From NCBI RefSeq assembly GCF_024700885.2, contig NZ_CP117016.1: a DNA stretch of 64,000 nucleotides; one strand, given 5' to 3'. Under the pieces are notes generated by a model. It did no database searches. It was not told the origin of the DNA and worked only from the letters and a program-made list of their open reading frames with translations. Positions 19,620 through 64,000 of this stretch are shown piece by piece (the first letter of the stretch is position 1; every line of letters starts with the position of its first letter). The position numbers and the translations under genes were made by a program. The stretch comes from Escherichia coli. GTDB lineage: Bacteria > Pseudomonadota > Gammaproteobacteria > Enterobacterales > Enterobacteriaceae.

Positions 19620-19704
<85 letters not shown>

Positions 19705-19738
19705 AGGGGTAATTCAAATTTTGAGGTAATGCTTGAGA

Positions 19739-19823
<85 letters not shown>

Positions 19824-44021: not shown

Positions 44022-44660
44022 ATGAAAAAGTTAACAGTGGCGGCTTTGGCAGTAACAACTCTTCTCTCTGGCAGTGCCTTTGCGCATGAAGCAGGCGAAT
44101 TTTTTATGCGTGCAGGTTCTGCAACCGTACGTCCAACAGAAGGTGCTGGTGGTACGTTAGGAAGTCTGGGTGGATTCAGCGTGACCAATAACACTCAACT
44201 GGGCCTGACGTTTACTTATATGGCGACCGACAACATTGGTGTGGAATTACTGGCAGCGACGCCGTTCCGCCATAAAATCGGCACCAGGGCGACCGGCGAT
44301 ATTGCAACCGTTCATCATCTGCCGCCAACACTGATGGCGCAGTGGTATTTTGGTGATGCCAGCAGCAAATTCCGTCCTTATGTTGGGGCAGGCATCAACT
44401 ACACCACCTTCTTTGATAATGGATTTAACGATCATGGCAAAGAGGCGGGGCTTTCCGATCTCAGTCTGAAAGATTCCTGGGGAGCTGCCGGGCAGGTGGG
44501 GGTTGATTATCTGATTAACCGTGACTGGTTGGTTAACATGTCAGTGTGGTACATGGATATCGATACCACGGCTAAGTACAAATCTGGTGTTACTACCGTA
44601 AAAGACTCGGTACGACTGGATCCGTGGGTGTTTATGTTCTCCGCAGGATATCGTTTTTAA
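44022..44660 (+). CDS. ompW: Outer-membrane protein W
   Basis: 212-aa ORF with signal peptide (MKKLTVAALAVTTLLSGSAFA) and C-terminal aromatic residue (…YRF) typical of beta-barrel OMPs. Confidence 0.9.
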   Translation: MKKLTVAALAVTTLLSGSAFAHEAGEFFMRAGSATVRPTEGAGGTLGSLGGFSVTNNTQLGLTFTYMATDNIGVELLAATPFRHKIGTRATGDIATVHHLPPTLMAQWYFGDASSKFRPYVGAGINYTTFFDNGFNDHGKEAGLSDLSLKDSWGAAGQVGVDYLINRDWLVNMSVWYMDIDTTAKYKSGVTTVKDSVRLDPWVFMFSAGYRF

Positions 44661-44705: not shown

Positions 44706-45836
44706 TCAAATGACCAGTTTTTTCCATTCCTTACCGCGTGCATCGTTATAAATATCGGTCATTTTTTGATTCGAATGGCCTAGCAAAATTTTGGTATCAA
44801 CCCCCTGCTCTCTGAACAATCGCTCTGATAAAGATCTCTGCTCATGGAAAGAGGGTGGGGTGCCATTAGCACGCCAGTTGTAATCCACAGAATCCCGGGC
44901 TTTTTTAAATGCAACGGTTAATGTTGCTGGCTTAACCATCCCGCCGCGCTTAGCTGTCCCTTTCGCGTGATGGTGGTGCAATAGCCACGGACTAAGAACG
45001 CAATCGCGGCAGGATGACACTACATCATCCAGGGTGAGATTTAATTTATCGCAACGCAGAGCCAGAGGGATGGCAATCCGGGTTCCTGTTTTTTGCTGTT
45101 CGACATGAAGATAACCATCCCGGATATCCGAAAATTGCATTTTGCAAATATCTGAAAGGCGCTGGCCTGTCATCAGTGCCAGCAGCATACCGCGCTGTAA
45201 AAAGTAACCATCCTTTTCCGCTGCGTTATAAATCATCATCCACTCATCAAAAGTCAGTCGCTGTCTTGATATCCGCACCTGCGGTTTTTTTGCCGATTCT
45301 GCAGGGTTAAAGCCTGGCGGGACATCGCCCGTTTGCTGAGCTTCCCGGAAAACATCGATCAGTACTTTCCTGAAAATTTGTCCCATTCTGTTATGTCCTC
45401 TGGCCTTGTACTCTTCCAGTACTGATACCACATCTTTTACGGTTATGGCATCTAACGGTCTGGTGCCAAAACGTTCATCAAATACCCTGAGAGGGGCCGC
45501 TTTCTGTTTCAGCGTGTTGAGTTTGATCTCGCCGTTTTCATATCTTTCCTGTTGAATTTTTCTGTAATTATTCAGAAAAATGGTAACGGTTGATGAACCG
45601 CCGGTATCACTAATAATTTTCTCCTGCAGACTGAGCATTTGTTCCATTTGCTGCCGGGCAAGACGGCTGTTCGCTTCTGCTGCAATAGTTTCTGCCAGTT
45701 TCTGGTCAATACTGCCGAGACCGTGATTTTTGCCTGTTATGGGATGCCTGTAACGCCAGTAAACTTTGTTATTTCTTTTGTCAAAATACGGAGATAATCC
45801 CGGAACATCGGTTTTATATTTTCGCGGGCGCGCCAT
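44706..45836 (-). CDS. int: Phage tyrosine integrase
   Basis: 376-aa ORF ending at the ompW-proximal junction; C-terminal LLGHSNQKMTDIY box II with catalytic Tyr; overlaps the upstream xis gene by 23 nt. Confidence 0.9.
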   Translation of the reverse strand: MARPRKYKTDVPGLSPYFDKRNNKVYWRYRHPITGKNHGLGSIDQKLAETIAAEANSRLARQQMEQMLSLQEKIISDTGGSSTVTIFLNNYRKIQQERYENGEIKLNTLKQKAAPLRVFDERFGTRPLDAITVKDVVSVLEEYKARGHNRMGQIFRKVLIDVFREAQQTGDVPPGFNPAESAKKPQVRISRQRLTFDEWMMIYNAAEKDGYFLQRGMLLALMTGQRLSDICKMQFSDIRDGYLHVEQQKTGTRIAIPLALRCDKLNLTLDDVVSSCRDCVLSPWLLHHHHAKGTAKRGGMVKPATLTVAFKKARDSVDYNWRANGTPPSFHEQRSLSERLFREQGVDTKILLGHSNQKMTDIYNDARGKEWKKLVI

Positions 45837-56352: not shown

Positions 56353-56991
56353 ATGAAGATGAAAAACATGTCTGAAGTGTTGACCCAAGAAAAGCTTATT
56401 TTTGTTGCCCAGAGACTAAATGCCCTCGCGCAGTCAGGCCTGACCTATTCAAAAGACGTCTTTGACAAGGAACGCTATGAAGCCTTGCGTGAAATTGCCG
56501 CTGGACTGCTGAGTTCGCAGTTTGATATTAGCCGCAATGATTTGTTTCATGTATCGGAAACGGGTTACGCGACGCCCAAAACAGATGTGCGTGCGTTTAT
56601 CCTGCGTAATAATCGTATTCTGATGGTGAAAGAGGCTGCAGATGGATTATGGAGTCTTCCTGGCGGATGGGCAGATGTTGGAGATACACCTTCTGAAGCT
56701 GTGCGTCGAGAGGTCGAAGAAGAAACCGGATTAAAAGTCAGAGTGACTAAACTATTGGGAGTTTGGGATCGTAATCTTCACGGCCATCCGCCTTTACCCT
56801 GGCATGTTTACAAGCTGATTTTTCTCTGTGAAGAAGTAGGTGGCAGCCTGTCAATCAGCCATGAGTCACTCGATGCTGATTTTTTTGATGTCAACGACCT
56901 GCCTGAATTGTCGCTTTCAAGAATTGTGCCTGAGCAGATTGCTGTCAGCCTGAGAGTAGCGAAAGGTGATGAAAAAACATGGTTTGATTAA
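56353..56991 (+). CDS. NUDIX hydrolase with Nudix_N-type N-terminal domain (prophage cargo)
   Basis: Nudix box GGWADVGDTPSEAVRREVEEETGL (Gx5Ex7REUxEExGU); N-terminal ~60 aa resemble the Nudix N-terminal extension of ADP-ribose pyrophosphatase-type enzymes. Start may be 56359 or 56368. Confidence 0.8.
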   Translation: MKMKNMSEVLTQEKLIFVAQRLNALAQSGLTYSKDVFDKERYEALREIAAGLLSSQFDISRNDLFHVSETGYATPKTDVRAFILRNNRILMVKEAADGLWSLPGGWADVGDTPSEAVRREVEEETGLKVRVTKLLGVWDRNLHGHPPLPWHVYKLIFLCEEVGGSLSISHESLDADFFDVNDLPELSLSRIVPEQIAVSLRVAKGDEKTWFD

Positions 56992-57020
56992 CTTTCTTCT
57001 GCAACCATTAAGGAATGGCA

Positions 57021-57659
57021 ATGATATTCAACGCTAAGGGTTTTTTATTCGATATGGACGGTACGCTGGTTGATTCAACAGCCGTAGTGGAAAGCGTCTG
57101 GAGAGATTTTTGTGCAGAATACGGTCTTGATACTCAGGCTGTGATTGCTTACGCACACGGGCGGCAAACGATTGATACACTGACGCATTTTATTGGTGCA
57201 GGTGAGAAAACCAATAAAATCGCGGCCTCACTCGAAGAGGTTGAAATCAACACGACAGAAGGCGTTACTGAAGTAAAAGGGGCCGCTGCACTCTTATCAA
57301 AACTGCCACCGGATAGCTGGGCACTTGTTACTTCTGCAGGCAGAATGCTTGCCGAAAACAGGATGAAAGCGGCTAATCTCCCCTTACCCATAGTAATGGT
57401 GTGTGCAGAAGATGTAATGACGGGAAAACCAAGTCCCGAGGGTTACATCAAAGCAGCTTTGGCTTTGGGCCTTGAGCCTGGTGAATGCGTGGTATTTGAG
57501 GATGCATCTGCGGGTATAAAAGCAGGGCTGGCAAGTGGAGCTTCGGTAATAGCTGTTCAGCCTGACGCTCTGGGATCATCTGAAGCCCATGCCGTCAGCG
57601 AGCTGTCTGACATTATGGTCAAGATTTCCGGAGAACGTTTCAATATCATCTGTGGTTAA
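57021..57659 (+). CDS. HAD-superfamily phosphatase (beta-phosphoglucomutase-like subfamily)
   Basis: Motif I FDMDGTLVDS, motif II VTSAG, motif IV EDASAGIKAG; ATG at 57021 is 6 nt after AAGGA; 29 bp downstream of the Nudix gene. Confidence 0.8.
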   Translation: MIFNAKGFLFDMDGTLVDSTAVVESVWRDFCAEYGLDTQAVIAYAHGRQTIDTLTHFIGAGEKTNKIAASLEEVEINTTEGVTEVKGAAALLSKLPPDSWALVTSAGRMLAENRMKAANLPLPIVMVCAEDVMTGKPSPEGYIKAALALGLEPGECVVFEDASAGIKAGLASGASVIAVQPDALGSSEAHAVSELSDIMVKISGERFNIICG

Positions 57660-58826: not shown

Positions 58827-59885
58827 GTGCGGGTATTACTTCGACCTGTTCTGGTACCGGAACTCGGTCTGGTTATCGTTAAGCCAGGCCGTGAATCAAT
58901 GTCAGCATTCCATAACGGCAGAATACTGGTGGAGCCGGAACCAAAAAGCATGCGTAATCTGCCGTCCGGGGTCGTTCCTGCCGCTCGCCAGCCGCTGGTG
59001 GAAGACAAAACATTGCTGCCGTTTTTCAGTAACGCACGGGTGATTCGTGCTGCTGGTGGTGCTGGTGCATTGTCTGACTGGCTGTTGCGCCATATTAAAT
59101 CCTGCCAGTGGCCACACGGCGATTATCATCACAGCGAAACCGTCATTCACCGTTATGGTACCGGCGCAATGGTGTTGTGCTGGCACTGCGACAACCAGCT
59201 GCGTGACCAGACATCCGAATCACTCGGGCAACTTGCTCATCAAAACCTGTCAGCATGGATGATTGACGTCATCGGTCACGCAATAAGCGGTACGCAGGAG
59301 CGTGAATTATCTCTGGCTGAATTATCCTGGTGGGCGGTCCGCAATCAGGTGGCGGACGCGCTACCGGAAGCGGTATTACGTCGTTCGCTGGGGTTGCGTG
59401 CGGAAAAAATTCGCTCTGTGTACAGTGAAAGCGACATCATACCGGGAGAGCAGACCGCCACCAGCATACTGAAGCAGCGCACAAAAAATATTGCGTTACT
59501 GCCTCACGTCCACCAGCAACAGAACCCACCACAGGAAAAGACGGTGGTCAGCATTGCCGTTGATCCGGAGTCACCGGCTCAGTATCTCCAGCGCCAGAAA
59601 TCACAACGGGAAGAGATGCCTGTATACACGCGCTGGGTAAAAACGCAGAAATGCATGACGTGTGGCAATCAGGCAGATGATCCGCATCACATCATTGGTC
59701 ATGGACTGGGAGGGATGGGAACAAAGGCTGATGATTTGTTTGTTATTCCGTTATGCCGTAAATGCCGTAACGAACTACATGCCGGAGTAAAAGATTTTGA
59801 AGAGAAACACGGCAGTCAGCTGTTGTTGCTGATTCGTTTTTTAATGCACGCGAGAAATTCGGGTGTTCTGAAGTGGAAAGCATAA
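58827..59885 (+). CDS. DUF968-like protein (YdfU-like, 352 aa)
   Basis: GTG at 58827 preceded by GGAGG; Cys/His-rich C-terminal segment (CMTCGNQADDPHHIIGHGLGG...CRKCRNELH); synteny hok-rem-ydfU as in Qin. Confidence 0.55.
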   Translation: MRVLLRPVLVPELGLVIVKPGRESMSAFHNGRILVEPEPKSMRNLPSGVVPAARQPLVEDKTLLPFFSNARVIRAAGGAGALSDWLLRHIKSCQWPHGDYHHSETVIHRYGTGAMVLCWHCDNQLRDQTSESLGQLAHQNLSAWMIDVIGHAISGTQERELSLAELSWWAVRNQVADALPEAVLRRSLGLRAEKIRSVYSESDIIPGEQTATSILKQRTKNIALLPHVHQQQNPPQEKTVVSIAVDPESPAQYLQRQKSQREEMPVYTRWVKTQKCMTCGNQADDPHHIIGHGLGGMGTKADDLFVIPLCRKCRNELHAGVKDFEEKHGSQLLLLIRFLMHARNSGVLKWKA

Positions 59886-60266
59886 ATGACCGAGCGCATA
59901 GAATTTGTTTTACCTTACCCGCCGACGGTGAACACTTACTGGCGACGCCGTGGCAGCACATATTTTATCTCGGAGGAGGGAAAGCGTTATCGCCGGGCTG
60001 TGGCGCTTATTGTTCGCCAGCAGCGGCTGAAATTAAGCCTGTCCGGAAGGCTGGCGATAAAGGTGATTGCAGAGCCACCGGATAAGCGTCGTCGCGACCT
60101 GGACAATATCCTGAAAGCACCGCTGGATGCGCTGACGCATGCGGGAGTGTTAATGGACGATGAGCAGTTTGATGAAATCAATATCGTTCGTGGTCAGCCA
60201 GTATCTGGTGGACGTCTGGGGGTGAAGATTTACCCCATAATGCATGAAGAGCAGGTCAAAAAATGA
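59886..60266 (+). CDS. rusA: RusA-family Holliday-junction resolvase
   Basis: 126-aa ORF with MTERIEFVLPYPPTVNTYWRRRG and the catalytic-region motif DKRRRDLDNILKAPLDALTHAGVLMDDEQF. Confidence 0.75.
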   Translation: MTERIEFVLPYPPTVNTYWRRRGSTYFISEEGKRYRRAVALIVRQQRLKLSLSGRLAIKVIAEPPDKRRRDLDNILKAPLDALTHAGVLMDDEQFDEINIVRGQPVSGGRLGVKIYPIMHEEQVKK

Positions 60267-61084
60267 AACTGGAAGATTTACCGAAATACTACTCCCCAAA
60301 ATCCCCTGGCCTGACCGATGCATCGGCCTCAACGTCAAAAGATGCGCTGAGTATCACTGATGTGATGGCCGCGCAGGGCATGACACAGAATCGGGCTGAG
60401 ATGGGGTTTTCTGCGTTCCTGGGGAAAATGGGCATCAGTATGAATGACAGGGCGCGGGCAACAGAATTACTGGCAGATTATGCACTCAGTCGGTGCGATC
60501 GTGTGGCGGCGTTGAGAAAACTTCCGGCAGAAATAAAACCGGTAGTGATGCGCATTATGGCTTCGTACGCTTTTGAGGATTATGCCCGCAGCGCAGCGAG
60601 TAAAAAGCAGTGCCCCTGTTGCCGAGGGGAAAAATTTATTGAAGGCGAAGTTTTTACAAACAAGGTTCAGTATCCGGATGGCAAGCCGCCAGTATGGGCA
60701 AAGTGTACGAAAGGTGTGTATCCGTCTTACTGGGAAGAATGGAAAAAAATTCGGGAGGTGGTGAAAGTTTCTTGTCCTGAATGTAAAGGGAAGGGGGAGA
60801 TTTCCACTGCCTGTAAAGACTGCCGTGGGCGTGGTGTTGCCATTCATCGTGAAGAGTCGGTAAAACGTGGTATGCCTGTTATCAGAGACTGCCAGCGTTG
60901 TGGTGGTCGTGGCTGTGAAAGACTACCATCAACGGAGGCATTTAATGCCATACGCAAAGTGACGAGTGCTATCACGCTTGATACGTGGAAAAAATCAGTG
61001 AAACGCTTTTACGATACGTTGGTGGTTCGGTTTGACATTGAAGAGGCATGGGCGGAGCGGCAGTTAAAGAGGGTAACGCGATAG
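60263..61084 (+). CDS. Putative late-gene antiterminator (Q-like) with four DnaJ-type CxxCxGxG zinc-finger repeats
   Basis: Position (after rusA, before a strong terminator and the late region) is that of Q; contains CPCCRGEK, CPECKGKG, CKDCRGRG and CQRCGGRG. Confidence 0.5.
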   Translation: MKLEDLPKYYSPKSPGLTDASASTSKDALSITDVMAAQGMTQNRAEMGFSAFLGKMGISMNDRARATELLADYALSRCDRVAALRKLPAEIKPVVMRIMASYAFEDYARSAASKKQCPCCRGEKFIEGEVFTNKVQYPDGKPPVWAKCTKGVYPSYWEEWKKIREVVKVSCPECKGKGEISTACKDCRGRGVAIHREESVKRGMPVIRDCQRCGGRGCERLPSTEAFNAIRKVTSAITLDTWKKSVKRFYDTLVVRFDIEEAWAERQLKRVTR

Positions 61085-61165
61085 TGTTGTTGATTTTTCC
61101 CGAATCTGTGGTAAATTTGCTCTAACGATGGGCGTTTTATGCCTGACGTTAGAAGATTTTTTACA

Positions 61166-61188
61166 CCCCGCCGCCTGGCGGGTTTTTT
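61166..61188 (+). terminator. Rho-independent terminator downstream of the Q-like gene (tR'-like)
   Basis: cccgccgcctggcggg hairpin followed by TTTTTT. Confidence 0.65.
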
Positions 61189-61310
61189 ATGACTGAAATC
61201 GCGTCAGTACAGTAAACGCGCTGGTGGCGGTGAATACCTGTCTTTCAGCTTGCTGGCTTTTTCGACAAGAGTTATTGGTGTGTCACGTTAACCGGAAAAG
61301 GGAAAAAGAC

Positions 61311-61508
61311 ATGCTAAAACAGCAGGATATGACAGAAACCGCCAGAGTGGTGTTTAATGAATTAAGCGTTACCGAACCGGCGACAGTCGGGGAGATAGCG
61401 CAGAATACTTACCTTTCACGCGAACGCTGCCAGTTAATACTGACCCAGCTGGTTATGGCGGGTCTGGCAGACTATCAGTTCGGTTGTTACAGACGCCTTC
61501 AGTCCTGA
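61311..61508 (+). CDS. Small hypothetical protein (65 aa)
   Basis: ATG at 61311 after AAGGGA (MLKQQDMTETARVVFNELSVTEPATVGEIAQN...); ends inside a terminator hairpin. Confidence 0.4.
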   Translation: MLKQQDMTETARVVFNELSVTEPATVGEIAQNTYLSRERCQLILTQLVMAGLADYQFGCYRRLQS

Positions 61509-61518
61509 AGGCTTTTTT
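61494..61518 (+). terminator. Rho-independent terminator
   Basis: gccttcagtcctgaaggc hairpin followed by TTTTTTATTT. Confidence 0.65.
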
Positions 61519-61658
61519 ATTTGTGGTAAATGGGCGGCTGGTGGGTGTTAGGGGCACCCACCAGCCATCTGCTCATGCGTTGGGTTCACAAGCAAACCTC
61601 AGGCCCACTGCTTTGCGCAAAAGCAGAATGAGCCTATCAGAGACAGGCTTAATGATCC

Positions 61659-62708
61659 ATGCTTAATACTGTAAAAATATCCAGTTGTGAGTTAATCAAC
61701 GCCGACTGCCTGGAATTTATCCGGTCGTTACCCGAAAATTCTGTTGACCTGATAGTCACGGACCCGCCGTACTTTAAAGTGAAGCCTGAGGGCTGGGATA
61801 ACCAGTGGAAGGGCGACGATGATTACCTGAAGTGGCTGGACCAGTGTCTGGCGCAGTTCTGGCGGGTGCTGAAACCTGCCGGAAGTCTTTACCTGTTCTG
61901 TGGTCATCGCCTGGCATCTGATATCGAAATCATGATGCGTGAACGCTTCAGTGTGCTGAACCATATTATCTGGGCGAAGCCGTCCGGACGCTGGAACGGA
62001 TGCAACAAGGAAAGCCTGCGGGCGTATTTCCCCGCCACAGAGCGCATTCTGTTCGCGGAACATTATCAGGGGCCGTATCGTCCGAAAGATGCCGGGTATG
62101 CGGCGAAGGGCAGTGCACTGAAACAGCATGTGATGGCCCCGCTGATTTCTTACTTTCGTGATGCGCGCGCGGCCCTGGGGATAACGGCAAAACAGATTGC
62201 AGATGCCACAGGAAAGAAAAACATGGTGTCGCACTGGTTCAGTGCCAGTCAGTGGCAGCTACCGAATGAAAGCGATTATCTGAAATTACAGGCGCTGTTT
62301 GCCCGGGTGGCAGAAGAGAAGCATCGGCGTGGTGAACTGGAAAAGCTCCACCACCAGCTGGTGGATACGTATACCTCACTGAACCGGCAGTATGCGGAGC
62401 TGCTGAGTGAATATAAACATCTGCGGCGGTATTTTGGCGTGACGGTGCAGGTGCCGTATACCGATGTGTGGACGCATAAACCGGTGCAGTTCTATCCCGG
62501 GAAACATCTGTGCGAAAAACCGGCAGAAATGCTGCAGCAGATAATCAGCGCAAGCAGTCGTCCGGGTGACCTGGTTGCAGATTTTTTCATGGGGTCGGGT
62601 TCAACGGTAAAAGCGGCGATGGCACTGGGGCGTCGTGCGATTGGCGTTGAACTGGAGACCGGACGTTTTGAGCAGACAGTCAGGGAAGTTCAGGATTTAA
62701 TCGTTTGA
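61659..62708 (+). CDS. Orphan DNA methyltransferase (beta-class N6-adenine/N4-cytosine type)
   Basis: Motif IV DPPY (LIVTDPPYF) near the N-terminus and AdoMet motif I FFMGSGST near the C-terminus (beta-class order); no adjacent restriction endonuclease gene. Confidence 0.8.
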   Translation: MLNTVKISSCELINADCLEFIRSLPENSVDLIVTDPPYFKVKPEGWDNQWKGDDDYLKWLDQCLAQFWRVLKPAGSLYLFCGHRLASDIEIMMRERFSVLNHIIWAKPSGRWNGCNKESLRAYFPATERILFAEHYQGPYRPKDAGYAAKGSALKQHVMAPLISYFRDARAALGITAKQIADATGKKNMVSHWFSASQWQLPNESDYLKLQALFARVAEEKHRRGELEKLHHQLVDTYTSLNRQYAELLSEYKHLRRYFGVTVQVPYTDVWTHKPVQFYPGKHLCEKPAEMLQQIISASSRPGDLVADFFMGSGSTVKAAMALGRRAIGVELETGRFEQTVREVQDLIV

Positions 62709-62757
62709 AACGGATGAGATTGCAGAATTAATTACGCACCATTATTATTCTGCTTCC

Positions 62758-62833
62758 GGCCCTTTAGCTCAGTGGTGAGAGCGAGCGACTCATAATCGCC
62801 AGGTCGCTGGTTCAAATCCAGCAAGGGCCACCA
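62758..62833 (+). tRNA. Prophage tRNA with CAU anticodon (Ile2/lysidine-type, ileZ-like; Met not excluded)
   Basis: 76 nt folding into a cloverleaf by hand: acceptor GGCCCTT/AAGGGCC, D-stem GCTC/GAGC, anticodon loop CTCATAA, T-arm GCTGG-TTCAAAT-CCAGC, 3' ACCA. Confidence 0.8.
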
Positions 62834-62933
62834 TCACAAACCGCCATTAGCTTATCAGGAAGAGCAGACGACACGATAACAGGGTTGTTGGTGCGGGGGC
62901 GGGTCCCCGATGGCGGTCCATTATCGGTATTCA

Positions 62934-63010
62934 GCGTTGTTAGCTCAGCCGGACAGAGCAATTGCCTTCTAAGCAATCGGTCACTGGTTCGAATCCAGTA
63001 CAGCGCGCCA
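62934..63010 (+). tRNA. Prophage tRNA-Arg (UCU)
   Basis: 77 nt: acceptor GCGTTGT/ACAGCGC, D-arm TAGCTCAGCCGGACAGAGCA, anticodon loop CTTCTAA, T-arm ACTGG-TTCGAAT-CCAGT, 3' GCCA; related to argU-type tRNAs. Confidence 0.8.
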
Positions 63011-63117
63011 TATTCATTCTTCCAGATTCCTTTCGGCAGAGCCTTATACTGAAATATACCTGGCTCAGGATATTGTTGAAAATATTATATGTTTGTCAAA
63101 AATAAAAGTTCTGTTAA

Positions 63118-63474
63118 GTGTTGATTGAGTGTTTGTTATACGGTCTAATGGTTTTTTCAGCATTAAATATTTATCATTCATATGGTGTGGGTAGAGTGAA
63201 TATTGATGAGGCGTCGGGGTGTTTCATCCTTAGGCAGCGTATTGATATAGTCAATGCAGAACGAGCAAAGGCCTTCAGCCGTTTGACAGTTTTGTTCTGT
63301 ACTCCTGATCGTCTTTCGGGAAGAGACGTTATTATTCTGAATAGTGATGCTATACAGAGGGTTTGCGATGAGTTCATGGTGGCTAATTCAGAATTATTTG
63401 CTCTTGTTCAGGAGTACAACAGAATAGCCAGGACCTGTGGTATGGATGAACTTCGGATTACTCATCTGGGGTAG
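63118..63474 (+). CDS. Hypothetical AT-rich cargo ORF (118 aa) in the post-tRNA slot
   Basis: ORF directly downstream of the tRNA pair; low GC; no recognisable motif (MLIECLLYGLMVFSALNIYHSYGVGRVNIDEASGCFILRQRIDIVNAERAK...). Start uncertain (alternative Met at 63148). Confidence 0.4.
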   Translation: MLIECLLYGLMVFSALNIYHSYGVGRVNIDEASGCFILRQRIDIVNAERAKAFSRLTVLFCTPDRLSGRDVIILNSDAIQRVCDEFMVANSELFALVQEYNRIARTCGMDELRITHLG

Positions 63475-64000
63475 ATACATATCTGGATTATCACCGGTTA
63501 CGGTAAAAAGTGATTGCTTACTGTTTTTGTGAATGGCATTGCAGCAGCCGGATAATGTCAGTGCTGGCTGACGGTGTGCTGGTGGCGGGTGTGGTGGTTG
63601 CTGCTTTCCCGTTGCTGAAAAAGAAAACGCCAGACTGTTAGCCGGGTATCAGTTAGCGGGAGAAATTTTTAAATACTTCACAATTCAGGCGGTTGACTGT
63701 TGTCTGGTTTGCGGGGAGTTTGTTAAAAGAAACTGGCATGGTGAATCCCCCTGTGCGGAGGGGCAATCAGCGAGTAGGTATATGGGATAATCGCGGATTC
63801 AGGTGCTGGTACTGAATTCACCGGGAGGCACCCGGCACCATGCAATGGCACATAGCGCCACTCTCCAGCCCCTCTCCGGAGGGGCTGTTTATATTGATTT
63901 TGTCAGATGTGAGTAAACTCCTTATGGACTTTGTTGTTTTAGCCCATAAGGACATATTTGCAGAGTGCAACGGTTATTAAAGCATTCATTCAATACGTTA

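Follow-up and report, generated by a model that had tools for sequence, protein, structure and literature searches.

The gene at 61,659-62,708 of the window (the whole 64,000-nucleotide stretch of Escherichia coli DNA analysed here; features lie on the + strand unless stated otherwise) has an ATG start, encodes 349 amino acids and is very probably an ordinary copy of the M.EcoGI/M.EcoGII family of prophage methyltransferases; judged from its sequence, its product would methylate adenine at N6 regardless of the flanking bases. We propose a corrected annotation: a non-specific adenine methyltransferase of the M.EcoGII type, expressed late and dependent on Q, in place of a lysogeny regulator or a site-specific enzyme whose target is unknown. 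NCBI already contains an identical protein. The enzyme family is already known and characterised, is sold commercially and widely used for chromatin and RNA footprinting, and is present in most sequenced E. coli, so the assignment carries little weight as a discovery. For specialists, the window strain provides a naturally occurring Pro284Leu variant within a conserved motif.

The gene is real and intact in its DPPY and FxGxG motifs. In a profile search, residues 29-340 matched PF01555 (N6_N4_Mtase) with an E-value of 1.1e-41, and since the score of 143.7 bits compares with a cut-off of 26.7, the match is far above chance. By direct reading of the sequence, the catalytic motif IV (D35-P-P-Y38; 61,761-61,772) is found near the N-terminus and the AdoMet-binding motif I (D308-F-F310-M-G312-S-G314; 62,580-62,600), with FxGxG at residues 310-314, near the C-terminus. 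D35 and G312 were invariant in a family alignment of 94 sequences, while P36, P37, Y38, D308 and F310 were at least 90% conserved. The two motifs are separated by a central insert of about 110-150 residues, the target recognition domain (TRD), giving the order DPPY, TRD, FxGxG. Beta-class enzymes are defined by this order of motif IV (D/N/S-P-P-Y/F/W), TRD and motif I (FxGxG) (PMC7544214).

The AlphaFold2 model (mean pLDDT 93.4, pTM 0.88) has a helical TRD and linker at residues ~147-255 (62,097-62,423), with an HTH-like segment, ITAKQIADATGKKNMVSHWF, and helices at 147-158, 160-173, 177-184, 187-194, 204-223 and 238-255. These agree with the four-helix bundle described for the M.EcoGII TRD at residues 160-237 (PMC11551740). 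The top solved structures found with Foldseek were CcrM (6pbd), M.BceJIV (8urk), M.RsrI, M1.MboII (MboIIA) and M1.HpyAVI, with E-values from 1e-17 to 1e-12. Thus the beta-class assignment of the original prediction was borne out by the PF01555 match, the placement of the two motifs and the structural matches. The likeness to CcrM and YhdJ that it also named holds at the level of the class and fails beyond it: membership was rejected for both CcrM (NCBIfam NF050803; score 69.6 against a cut-off of 830) and the YhdJ type (NF008572; 107.9 against 292), as only two conserved half-domains match. CcrM, YhdJ-type enzymes, M.BceJIV, M.RsrI and M1.MboII share the fold and motif order of the window enzyme; however, they are only ~19-22% identical to it and have other TRDs and defined recognition sites.

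The comparison with M.EcoGII, from E. coli O104:H4 C227-11, gave a very different picture. Against the M.EcoGII sequence in Table S1 of PMC11551740, whose printed copy was machine-read with visible errors, we found 330/350 identities, and correcting three evident reading errors brought this to ~334/349 (about 15 differences, about 95.7% identity). Because the reference is a machine-read copy with errors, we give the identity as a range of about 94-96%; two "repaired" M.EcoGII sequences had no match by exact look-up. The two proteins are of equal length (349 aa) and colinear, with no real indels. Their N-terminal 147 residues are identical, and 13 of the ~15 differences lie at residues 148-254, in the TRD and linker, the window protein also carrying F278 and a private L284. 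Its Gln179 is the state of the M.EcoGII clade. Both genes are prophage-borne orphans with the same DPPY-TRD-FxGxG order.

M.EcoGII methylates adenine in any context, in dsDNA, ssDNA and RNA; the share of dA that it modified was 86% in vivo and as high as 99% in vitro. It blocks many restriction enzymes, its expression slows growth, and it is silent in the native lysogen (PMC5778455, Murray et al. 2018). Its paralogue in the same strain, M.EcoGI, which differs from it at 16 positions, is likewise non-specific. Reconstructed ancestors of the family also stay non-specific (PMC11551740). For the window enzyme, non-specific activity, silence in the lysogen and toxicity are expectations carried over from the literature on these near-identical enzymes. 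It had been held that target specificity could not be read from the sequence, a statement that we would revise given about 94-96% identity to a biochemically non-specific enzyme whose reconstructed ancestors are non-specific too.

Not all family-invariant residues are kept in the window protein, Leu284 being the single exception. The conserved HPxEKP motif just upstream of motif I reads H283-L284-C-E-K287-P288 (62,505-62,522), owing to a private change in codon 284 (62,508-62,510): the codon is CTG, a C to T change (T at 62,509) giving leucine for proline. Since proline occupies this position in 119 of 120 close family representatives, its description as a fully typical member is weakened, though its family membership is not. 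Inactivating substitutions in the catalytic motifs, which the original prediction had named as grounds for doubt, were looked for and none was found in DPPY or FxGxG; P284L in the neighbouring motif is a caveat. The window allele could be a crippled copy, a decaying passenger in which P284L, beside the AdoMet pocket, cuts or abolishes activity. Leu284 is absent from all 120 close representatives, and among 5426 complete E. coli genomes the T allele occurs once and the C allele 1728 times. The only difference from strain 600029, which carries the Pro284 counterpart (WP_000935515.1), over 2.5 kb is the single base that changes codon 284, which suggests a recent, selection-naive mutation, and the near invariance of H283, K287 and P288 points to a functional motif around it. 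However, universal invariance of Pro284 was rejected: 127 diverged representatives include 93 with Pro, 8 with Ile, 7 with Val, 5 with Glu and 4 with Ser at this position, and M1.MboII, active and crystallised, reads HITPKP, with Ile at the equivalent site. Since Ile or Val is found in diverged relatives and Ile in active M1.MboII, inactivation by P284L is possible but not indicated. The AlphaFold2 model is confident across the block (mean pLDDT 95-98 for residues 271-300). Moreover, the exact protein is present on 7 contigs from several submissions, so Leu284 is no sequencing error, and it has been retained in a small clone. We consider a crippled copy unlikely and infer that the protein with Leu284 retains activity; conceivably, the change is a natural attenuation that makes the enzyme less toxic. 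A literature search on the HPTQKP motif found nothing.

The window matches a lambdoid prophage at ompW in E. coli MLI114, which has integrase, cI/Cro, Q, lysis, terminase, capsid and portal genes and looks complete. Of 5426 complete E. coli genomes, 3393 had matches to the 2.5-kb region of the window. The methyltransferase has as neighbours Q, a 65-aa ORF, tRNAs, and DUF968 and RusA genes. As originally proposed, it is a prophage-borne orphan: the RefSeq annotation of the identical MLI114 prophage contains no restriction endonuclease between the integrase and portal genes, and six neighbouring ORFs that were examined gave no match to PADLOC restriction-endonuclease models, the only PADLOC match among them being that of a NUDIX ORF to the candidate family PDC-S07. 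A Type II restriction-modification system was rejected on this absence of a cognate endonuclease from the annotation and the PADLOC matches.

The placement of the gene in the late region was also confirmed. It follows a Q antiterminator gene (60,263-61,084; 273 aa; PF03589 Antiterm, E 9e-51), which matches phrog_127 ("anti-termination protein Q-like") and is named "antitermination protein" by RefSeq in the identical MLI114 locus. Directly downstream of Q, alignment to the lambda post-Q region identified a putative late promoter pR' (61,093-61,135) with a -35-like TTGATT, an extended -10 TGgTAAATT and a lambda-type sigma70 pause element, AACGATGGG, in its initial transcribed region. The arrangement GGTAAATTTG....AACGATGGG is conserved with respect to lambda, whereas the -35/-10 spacer differs. 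An automatic promoter scan reported no + strand promoter upstream of the methyltransferase, the putative pR' being under its threshold. Two intrinsic terminators were found by scanning. The first, tR'-like (61,167-61,188; CCCGCC-GCCT-GGCGGG followed by T6, with 6 G-C pairs), aligns with the T-tract of lambda tR' and is kept in phages Stx2a_WGPS2 and 1720a-02 despite their different upstream Q/pR' sequences. The second (61,495-61,518; GCCTTCAG-TCCT-GAAGGC followed by TTTTTTATTT) is invariant in a three-phage alignment and overlaps the stop codon of a small conserved leader ORF (61,311-61,508; 65 aa; RefSeq CDS WP_000917768.1). This ORF belongs to phrog_331 (unknown function; E 1e-37) and has a weak winged-helix/TrmB-like signal (PF01978, E 0.006) below the cut-off.

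Since Q, pR' and two terminators precede the gene, its transcription should need Q antitermination, and we infer Q-dependent expression of the window copy, which would fit the published silence of the family in lysogens. Indeed, M.EcoMV of E. coli ST131 EC958, 99% identical to M.EcoGI, was not transcribed in culture, and M.Eco95JB1I/II, O111 STEC homologues with ~93% amino-acid similarity to M.EcoGI/GII, gave no methylome signal; these are prophage-encoded homologues from other strains and prophages. A review places M.EcoGII among temperate-phage modification enzymes whose expression is off in lysogens and starts upon induction.

In the lysogen, the two terminators would be expected to end the transcripts that start at a constitutive pR', and no enzyme would be made. 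Upon induction, Q would render RNA polymerase terminator-resistant and the enzyme would be made along with the lysis and morphogenesis genes. Before packaging, it could then methylate a large fraction of the adenines in phage DNA that is replicating or concatemeric. Since m6A blocks many Type I, II and III restriction systems, progeny genomes would arrive in the next host already protected against these. The most likely role would thus be to mark phage DNA indiscriminately with m6A as it replicates late in infection, for broad evasion of restriction, and we accept protection of progeny DNA, proposed from the outset, as the presumed function. The literature that we examined holds no demonstration of an in vivo anti-restriction role for any family member; searches for data on methylation following prophage induction came up empty, and those combining M.EcoGII with "anti-restriction" or "lambdoid" found only a review of relevance. 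Very dense m6A is costly, because plasmid heavily methylated by M.EcoGII gave 10^4-10^5-fold poorer transformation even of E. coli that does not restrict.

The immediate surroundings of the gene have features of their own. Its leader folds at -63.7 kcal/mol (z -3.6) and contains a perfect 12-bp hairpin (61,536-61,566; inverted repeat, 100% complementary) formed by two inverted Chi octamers (GCTGGTGG), with Chi matches at 61,537 (+) and 61,558 (-). A sub-threshold Rfam match to P26 in the leader was disregarded. Two tRNA genes lie downstream, as had been noticed originally, the first starting 49 nt after the methyltransferase: an ileZ-type tRNA-Ile2 with a CAT anticodon (62,758-62,833; ARAGORN, and Rfam tRNA at 72.5 bits), annotated tRNA-Ile by RefSeq and ileZ in Stx-phage annotations, and an argO-type tRNA-Arg (TCT) (62,934-63,010; ARAGORN, Rfam and Stx-phage comparison). 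The sequence between them (62,834-62,933) is a degenerate argN remnant, both ends of which align with argN of Stx2a_WGPS2 while the middle has been replaced, and which neither ARAGORN nor Rfam (E-value search) detected. As M.EcoGII-type enzymes act on ssDNA and RNA, late transcripts, tRNAs and ssDNA replication intermediates are possible substrates. That they are indeed substrates, and that the linkage of the enzyme with phage tRNA genes and a double-Chi leader is not incidental and reflects a role beyond restriction evasion, seems to us a distinctly long shot.

We hold it to be still less probable that the gene encodes a conventional site-specific orphan methyltransferase, with a target set by its own TRD variant, unlike that of M.EcoGII. 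The clustering of nearly all M.EcoGII differences within the TRD and linker, the HTH-like element in the TRD and the NCBI label of its relatives, "site-specific DNA-methyltransferase", could be taken in its favour. However, M.EcoGI remains non-specific with its 16 changes, and so do ancestral reconstructions far more diverged than the window allele, while the NCBI name is an automatic family label and not a tested property.

Least probable of all, and scarcely credible, is an epigenetic regulator acting in the lysogen, on host genes or on the lysis-lysogeny switch as the original prediction suggested, since, although orphan methyltransferases can regulate phage cycles and a passage of PMC4587872 cites Dam as needed for stable 933W lysogeny, two intrinsic terminators precede the gene in a late operon, family members are reported silent in lysogens and lack a methylation signal or transcript in uninduced cultures, methylation without specificity marks no particular position, and constitutive expression is harmful.

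The non-specific, late-expressed methyltransferase that we favour has a counterpart in Stx2 and related lambdoid phages, which share a cassette of ~93% nucleotide identity with the window, in the order tR'-like terminator, 65-aa ORF, second terminator, methyltransferase and ileZ/argN/argO tRNAs. This cassette is kept across phages with different Q/pR' modules. Phages 1720a-02, Stx2a_WGPS2 and phiP27 and many Stx2a phages of the LC5678xx accessions carry the gene as "DNA methylase" with 94-95% protein identity to that of the window, and 1720a-02 was named in the M.EcoGII paper as the carrier of a very similar methyltransferase (PMC5778455). In Stx2 phages the methylase lies between Q and the tRNA/stx genes, argN is intact and stx2AB comes right after the tRNAs. 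In contrast, the window prophage lacks stx, its slot after the tRNAs being filled by a low-GC 118-aa ORF and a DUF3927 ORF, its argN is degenerate, and its upstream Q/pR' module is of another type. The logic proposed here is also like that of phage Mu Mom, whose protein and chemistry are unrelated to the M.EcoGII type, but whose toxic, broad modification is likewise confined to lytic growth and evades many restriction systems.

The open reading frame at 61659..62708 (+ strand) begins with ATG and encodes a protein of 349 amino acids, which matches Pfam PF01555 (N6_N4_Mtase) over residues 29-340 (E 1.1e-41; 143.7 bits against a cut-off of 26.7 bits). Reading of the sequence placed motif IV (D35-P-P-Y38, preceded by T; nt 61761-61772, + strand) near the amino-terminus and the FxGxG motif I (D308-F-F310-M-G312-S-G314; nt 62580-62600, + strand) near the carboxy-terminus, with a central insert of about 110-150 amino acids between them. 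Inactivating substitutions in the catalytic motifs, which the original prediction had named as evidence that would count against it, are found in neither DPPY nor FxGxG. The order of motif IV, insert and motif I fits the definition of the beta class, in which motif IV is followed by the target recognition domain (TRD) and then by motif I (PMC7544214). A sequence search of the PDB matched both conserved halves in M.BceJIV (8urk/9c3u), M.RsrI, CcrM, M1.MboII, M1.HpyAVI and N4-cytosine enzymes, and a confident AlphaFold2 model (mean pLDDT 93.4, pTM 0.88), built from a 94-sequence alignment, returned the same beta-class enzymes as its top Foldseek matches in the PDB (E 1e-17 to 1e-12). By profile, motif order and fold, the protein is a beta-class member of PF01555. 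The CcrM and YhdJ equivalogs were both ruled out, with NCBIfam scores of 69.6 (cut-off 830) and 107.9 (cut-off 292), respectively.

The 2.5-kb region from 61100 to 63600 matches the E. coli MLI114 chromosome (NZ_CP117013.1) at 100% identity and belongs there to a lambdoid prophage inserted next to ompW. In the window, ompW (44022-44660) adjoins the prophage end that carries the integrase gene (44706-45836, - strand), which is followed in order by a RecE-like exonuclease, Rha, cI/Cro, replication genes, a NUDIX/HAD pair and hokD; the prophage also encodes a DUF968/HNH protein (58827-59885), RusA (59886-60266) and the antiterminator Q (60263-61084). Since the MLI114 annotation continues past the window end with holin, lysozyme, Rz-like, terminase, capsid and portal genes, the prophage looks complete. 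The same site is labelled 'PPompW' for some Stx2a prophages in the phage collection. The NUDIX and HAD hydrolase genes lie in the nin region (56353-57659), and the NUDIX product gives a match to PDC-S07, a candidate defence family in PADLOC (E 7e-10). No restriction endonuclease annotation was found across the whole prophage, and the PADLOC restriction-endonuclease models had no match among six neighbouring ORFs tested, so the label 'orphan' is correct. Membership in a Type II restriction-modification pair was ruled out, as there is no endonuclease partner.

The sequence right after Q is TTGATTTTTCCCGAATCTGTGGTAAATTTGCTCTAACGATGGG. When we aligned it with the sequence that follows Q in phage lambda, the block GGTAAATTTG....AACGATGGG was conserved and the spacer between -35 and -10 was not. 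In lambda, this block comprises the -10 element of the late promoter pR' (TAAATT) and, after it, the sigma70-dependent pause-inducing element, and the variable spacer holds the Q-binding element. The automatic promoter scan missed pR'; upstream of the methyltransferase gene it detected no further + strand site resembling a promoter. Past pR', the + strand carries two strong intrinsic terminators, the first (61167-61182 plus T-run) aligning with the T-tract of the lambda late terminator tR' and the second (61495-61512 plus T-run) overlapping the stop codon of a conserved 65-amino-acid ORF (61311-61508) that lies between the two and matches phrog_331 (function unknown). The gene is thus placed downstream of pR' and of both terminators, an anatomy that we infer to be that of a Q-dependent late gene. 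The 65-amino-acid ORF, which gave a weak TrmB/winged-helix signal below the cut-off, accompanies the methyltransferase in every phage examined. The leader also contains a perfect 12-bp hairpin (61536-61566) formed by a pair of Chi octamers in inverted orientation (GCTGGTGG) and kept in two Stx2 phages apart from one mismatch; a palindromic double Chi (CCACCAGCTGGTGG) lies within the methyltransferase gene (62351-62364), and the 58.9-63.6 kb interval holds 10 of the 23 Chi sites in the window.

Two tRNA genes were called next to the methyltransferase gene, the first starting 49 nt 3' of it: a tRNA with a CAT anticodon (62758-62833; tRNA-Ile in RefSeq, ileZ in Stx phages) and a tRNA-Arg(TCT) (62934-63010). 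At both ends, the 100-nt spacer between them (62834-62933) aligns with argN, a tRNA-Arg gene of Stx2a_WGPS2, and its middle has been replaced. Neither ARAGORN nor Rfam made a call in this degenerate argN, and the prophage therefore has two late-region tRNAs instead of the usual three. Farther on, a low-GC region at 63118-63641 occupies the slot of stx2AB in Stx phages (GC over 63020-63500 is 39%, versus 49% for the prophage part); within it are a 118-amino-acid ORF (phrog_2873, function unknown) with no Pfam or NCBIfam match and a 43-amino-acid DUF3927/TciB-like ORF, and in MLI114 the anti-adapter gene iraM comes next on the opposite strand. A strong, full-length match to the Rfam sRNA family STnc100 (RF02076; 63707-63896, + strand; 132 bits, where the gathering score is 47) adjoins the 3' side of this tRNA/moron region. 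A tandem tRNA-Tyr(GTA) pair (19620-19823, - strand) lies in the chromosomal part of the window.

Many Stx2 phages carry, at about 93% nucleotide identity, a small ORF, a 'DNA methylase', tRNA-Ile and two tRNA-Arg genes followed by stx2AB; a nucleotide search of phage genomes gave 1720a-02, Stx2a_WGPS2 and phiP27 as examples. In a three-way alignment, conservation begins exactly at the first terminator and the Q/pR' segments upstream are unrelated; the two terminators with the 65-amino-acid ORF between them, the methylase and the tRNAs are thus a mosaic cassette common to lambdoid phages with different antiterminators.

The enzyme of known activity to which the protein is closest is M.EcoGII of E. 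coli O104:H4 C227-11, a 349-amino-acid beta-class prophage enzyme; 16 residues distinguish it from its paralogue M.EcoGI. We found 330/350 identities with the M.EcoGII sequence of PMC11551740 Table S1, a text that contains evident recognition errors; three mismatches are such errors, and correction leaves about 15 differences (~95.7% identity), 13 of them within residues 148-254. Two repaired M.EcoGII sequences had no exact match on look-up. Identity to the enzymes of 1720a-02 and Stx2a_WGPS2 is 94.6% and 94.3%, and Gln179 is common to our protein and the M.EcoGII clade. The exact protein is present in NCBI and UniRef (7 contigs), its 90%-identity cluster holds 4845 member sequences, and the 2.5-kb region is matched by 3393 of 5426 complete E. 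coli genomes. The protein is a member of the M.EcoGI/M.EcoGII family, judged by its sequence, its length and its genomic setting. The original prediction was accurate in its description (a real ORF, the beta-class order, the late region, orphan status and adjacent tRNA genes), but two parts of its interpretation fail: the statement that specificity cannot be read from sequence no longer stands, given near-identity to the characterised M.EcoGII, and the suggested effect on the lytic switch found no support.

Compared with 120 close family representatives, the protein departs from the consensus (at least 85%) at Leu284 only, where 119 of the 120, and M.EcoGII, have Pro (G-K-H-P-C-E-K-P). The changed base is the T at 62509, in the CTG codon at 62508-62510; the 41-mer centred on it occurs in a single one of the 5426 genomes (MLI114), the version with C occurs in 1728, and this is the single-base difference between strain 600029 and the window over 61100-63600. 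Leu284 is thus a recent, private missense change within a conserved motif that lies directly ahead of motif I. The substitution is not obviously inactivating: among 127 more distant representatives, taken from clusters at 50% identity, Ile (8), Val (7), Glu (5) or Ser (4) as well as Pro (93) occur at this position, the nearly invariant H283, K287 and P288 are all intact, and M1.MboII, which is active and crystallised, has H-I-T-P-K-P at the corresponding place. A literature search for the HPTQKP motif found nothing. We consider it unlikely that the allele is impaired.

M.EcoGII methylates adenine in every dinucleotide context, acts on dsDNA, ssDNA (~80% of duplex activity), RNA/DNA hybrids and RNA, and converts 86% of dA to m6dA on a plasmid in vivo and as much as 99% in vitro; DNA modified in this way is protected from many restriction enzymes (PMC5778455). 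M.EcoGI has likewise been reported to be non-specific. Reconstructed family ancestors far more diverged than our allele are non-specific too; in size-exclusion chromatography the enzyme runs as a dimer, and AlphaFold2 predicts for it a Rossmann core (residues 1-134 and 260-349) with a helix-turn-helix in a four-helix-bundle TRD (residues 160-237) (PMC11551740), helices that are also present in our model. In the native lysogen M.EcoGII activity is undetectable, and its expression slows cell growth (PMC5778455). ST131 EC958 carries a 99%-identical M.EcoGI copy that is transcriptionally silent in culture (PMC4659465), and O111 STEC homologues with ~93% amino-acid similarity to M.EcoGI/GII have no methylome signature (PMC6602927).

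The best explanation, with its biochemistry drawn from near-identical enzymes and its timing and benefit as we infer them, is that the methyltransferase would be produced only after Q-mediated antitermination and would blanket replicating phage DNA with m6A, so that packaged genomes might escape m6A-sensitive restriction on entering a new host. For the allele in the window, non-specific methylation and silence in the lysogen would be properties carried over from its relatives; a literature search for methylation data after induction found nothing. A caution against a simple picture of blanket protection is that transformation drops 10^4-10^5-fold, even in non-restricting E. coli, for plasmid DNA carrying 80% m6dA (PMC5778455), so the density of methylation on phage DNA in vivo must matter. 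A 2025 review groups M.EcoGII with Mu Mom as modification enzymes that are silent in the lysogen, toxic if expressed and switched on at induction (PMC12707154).
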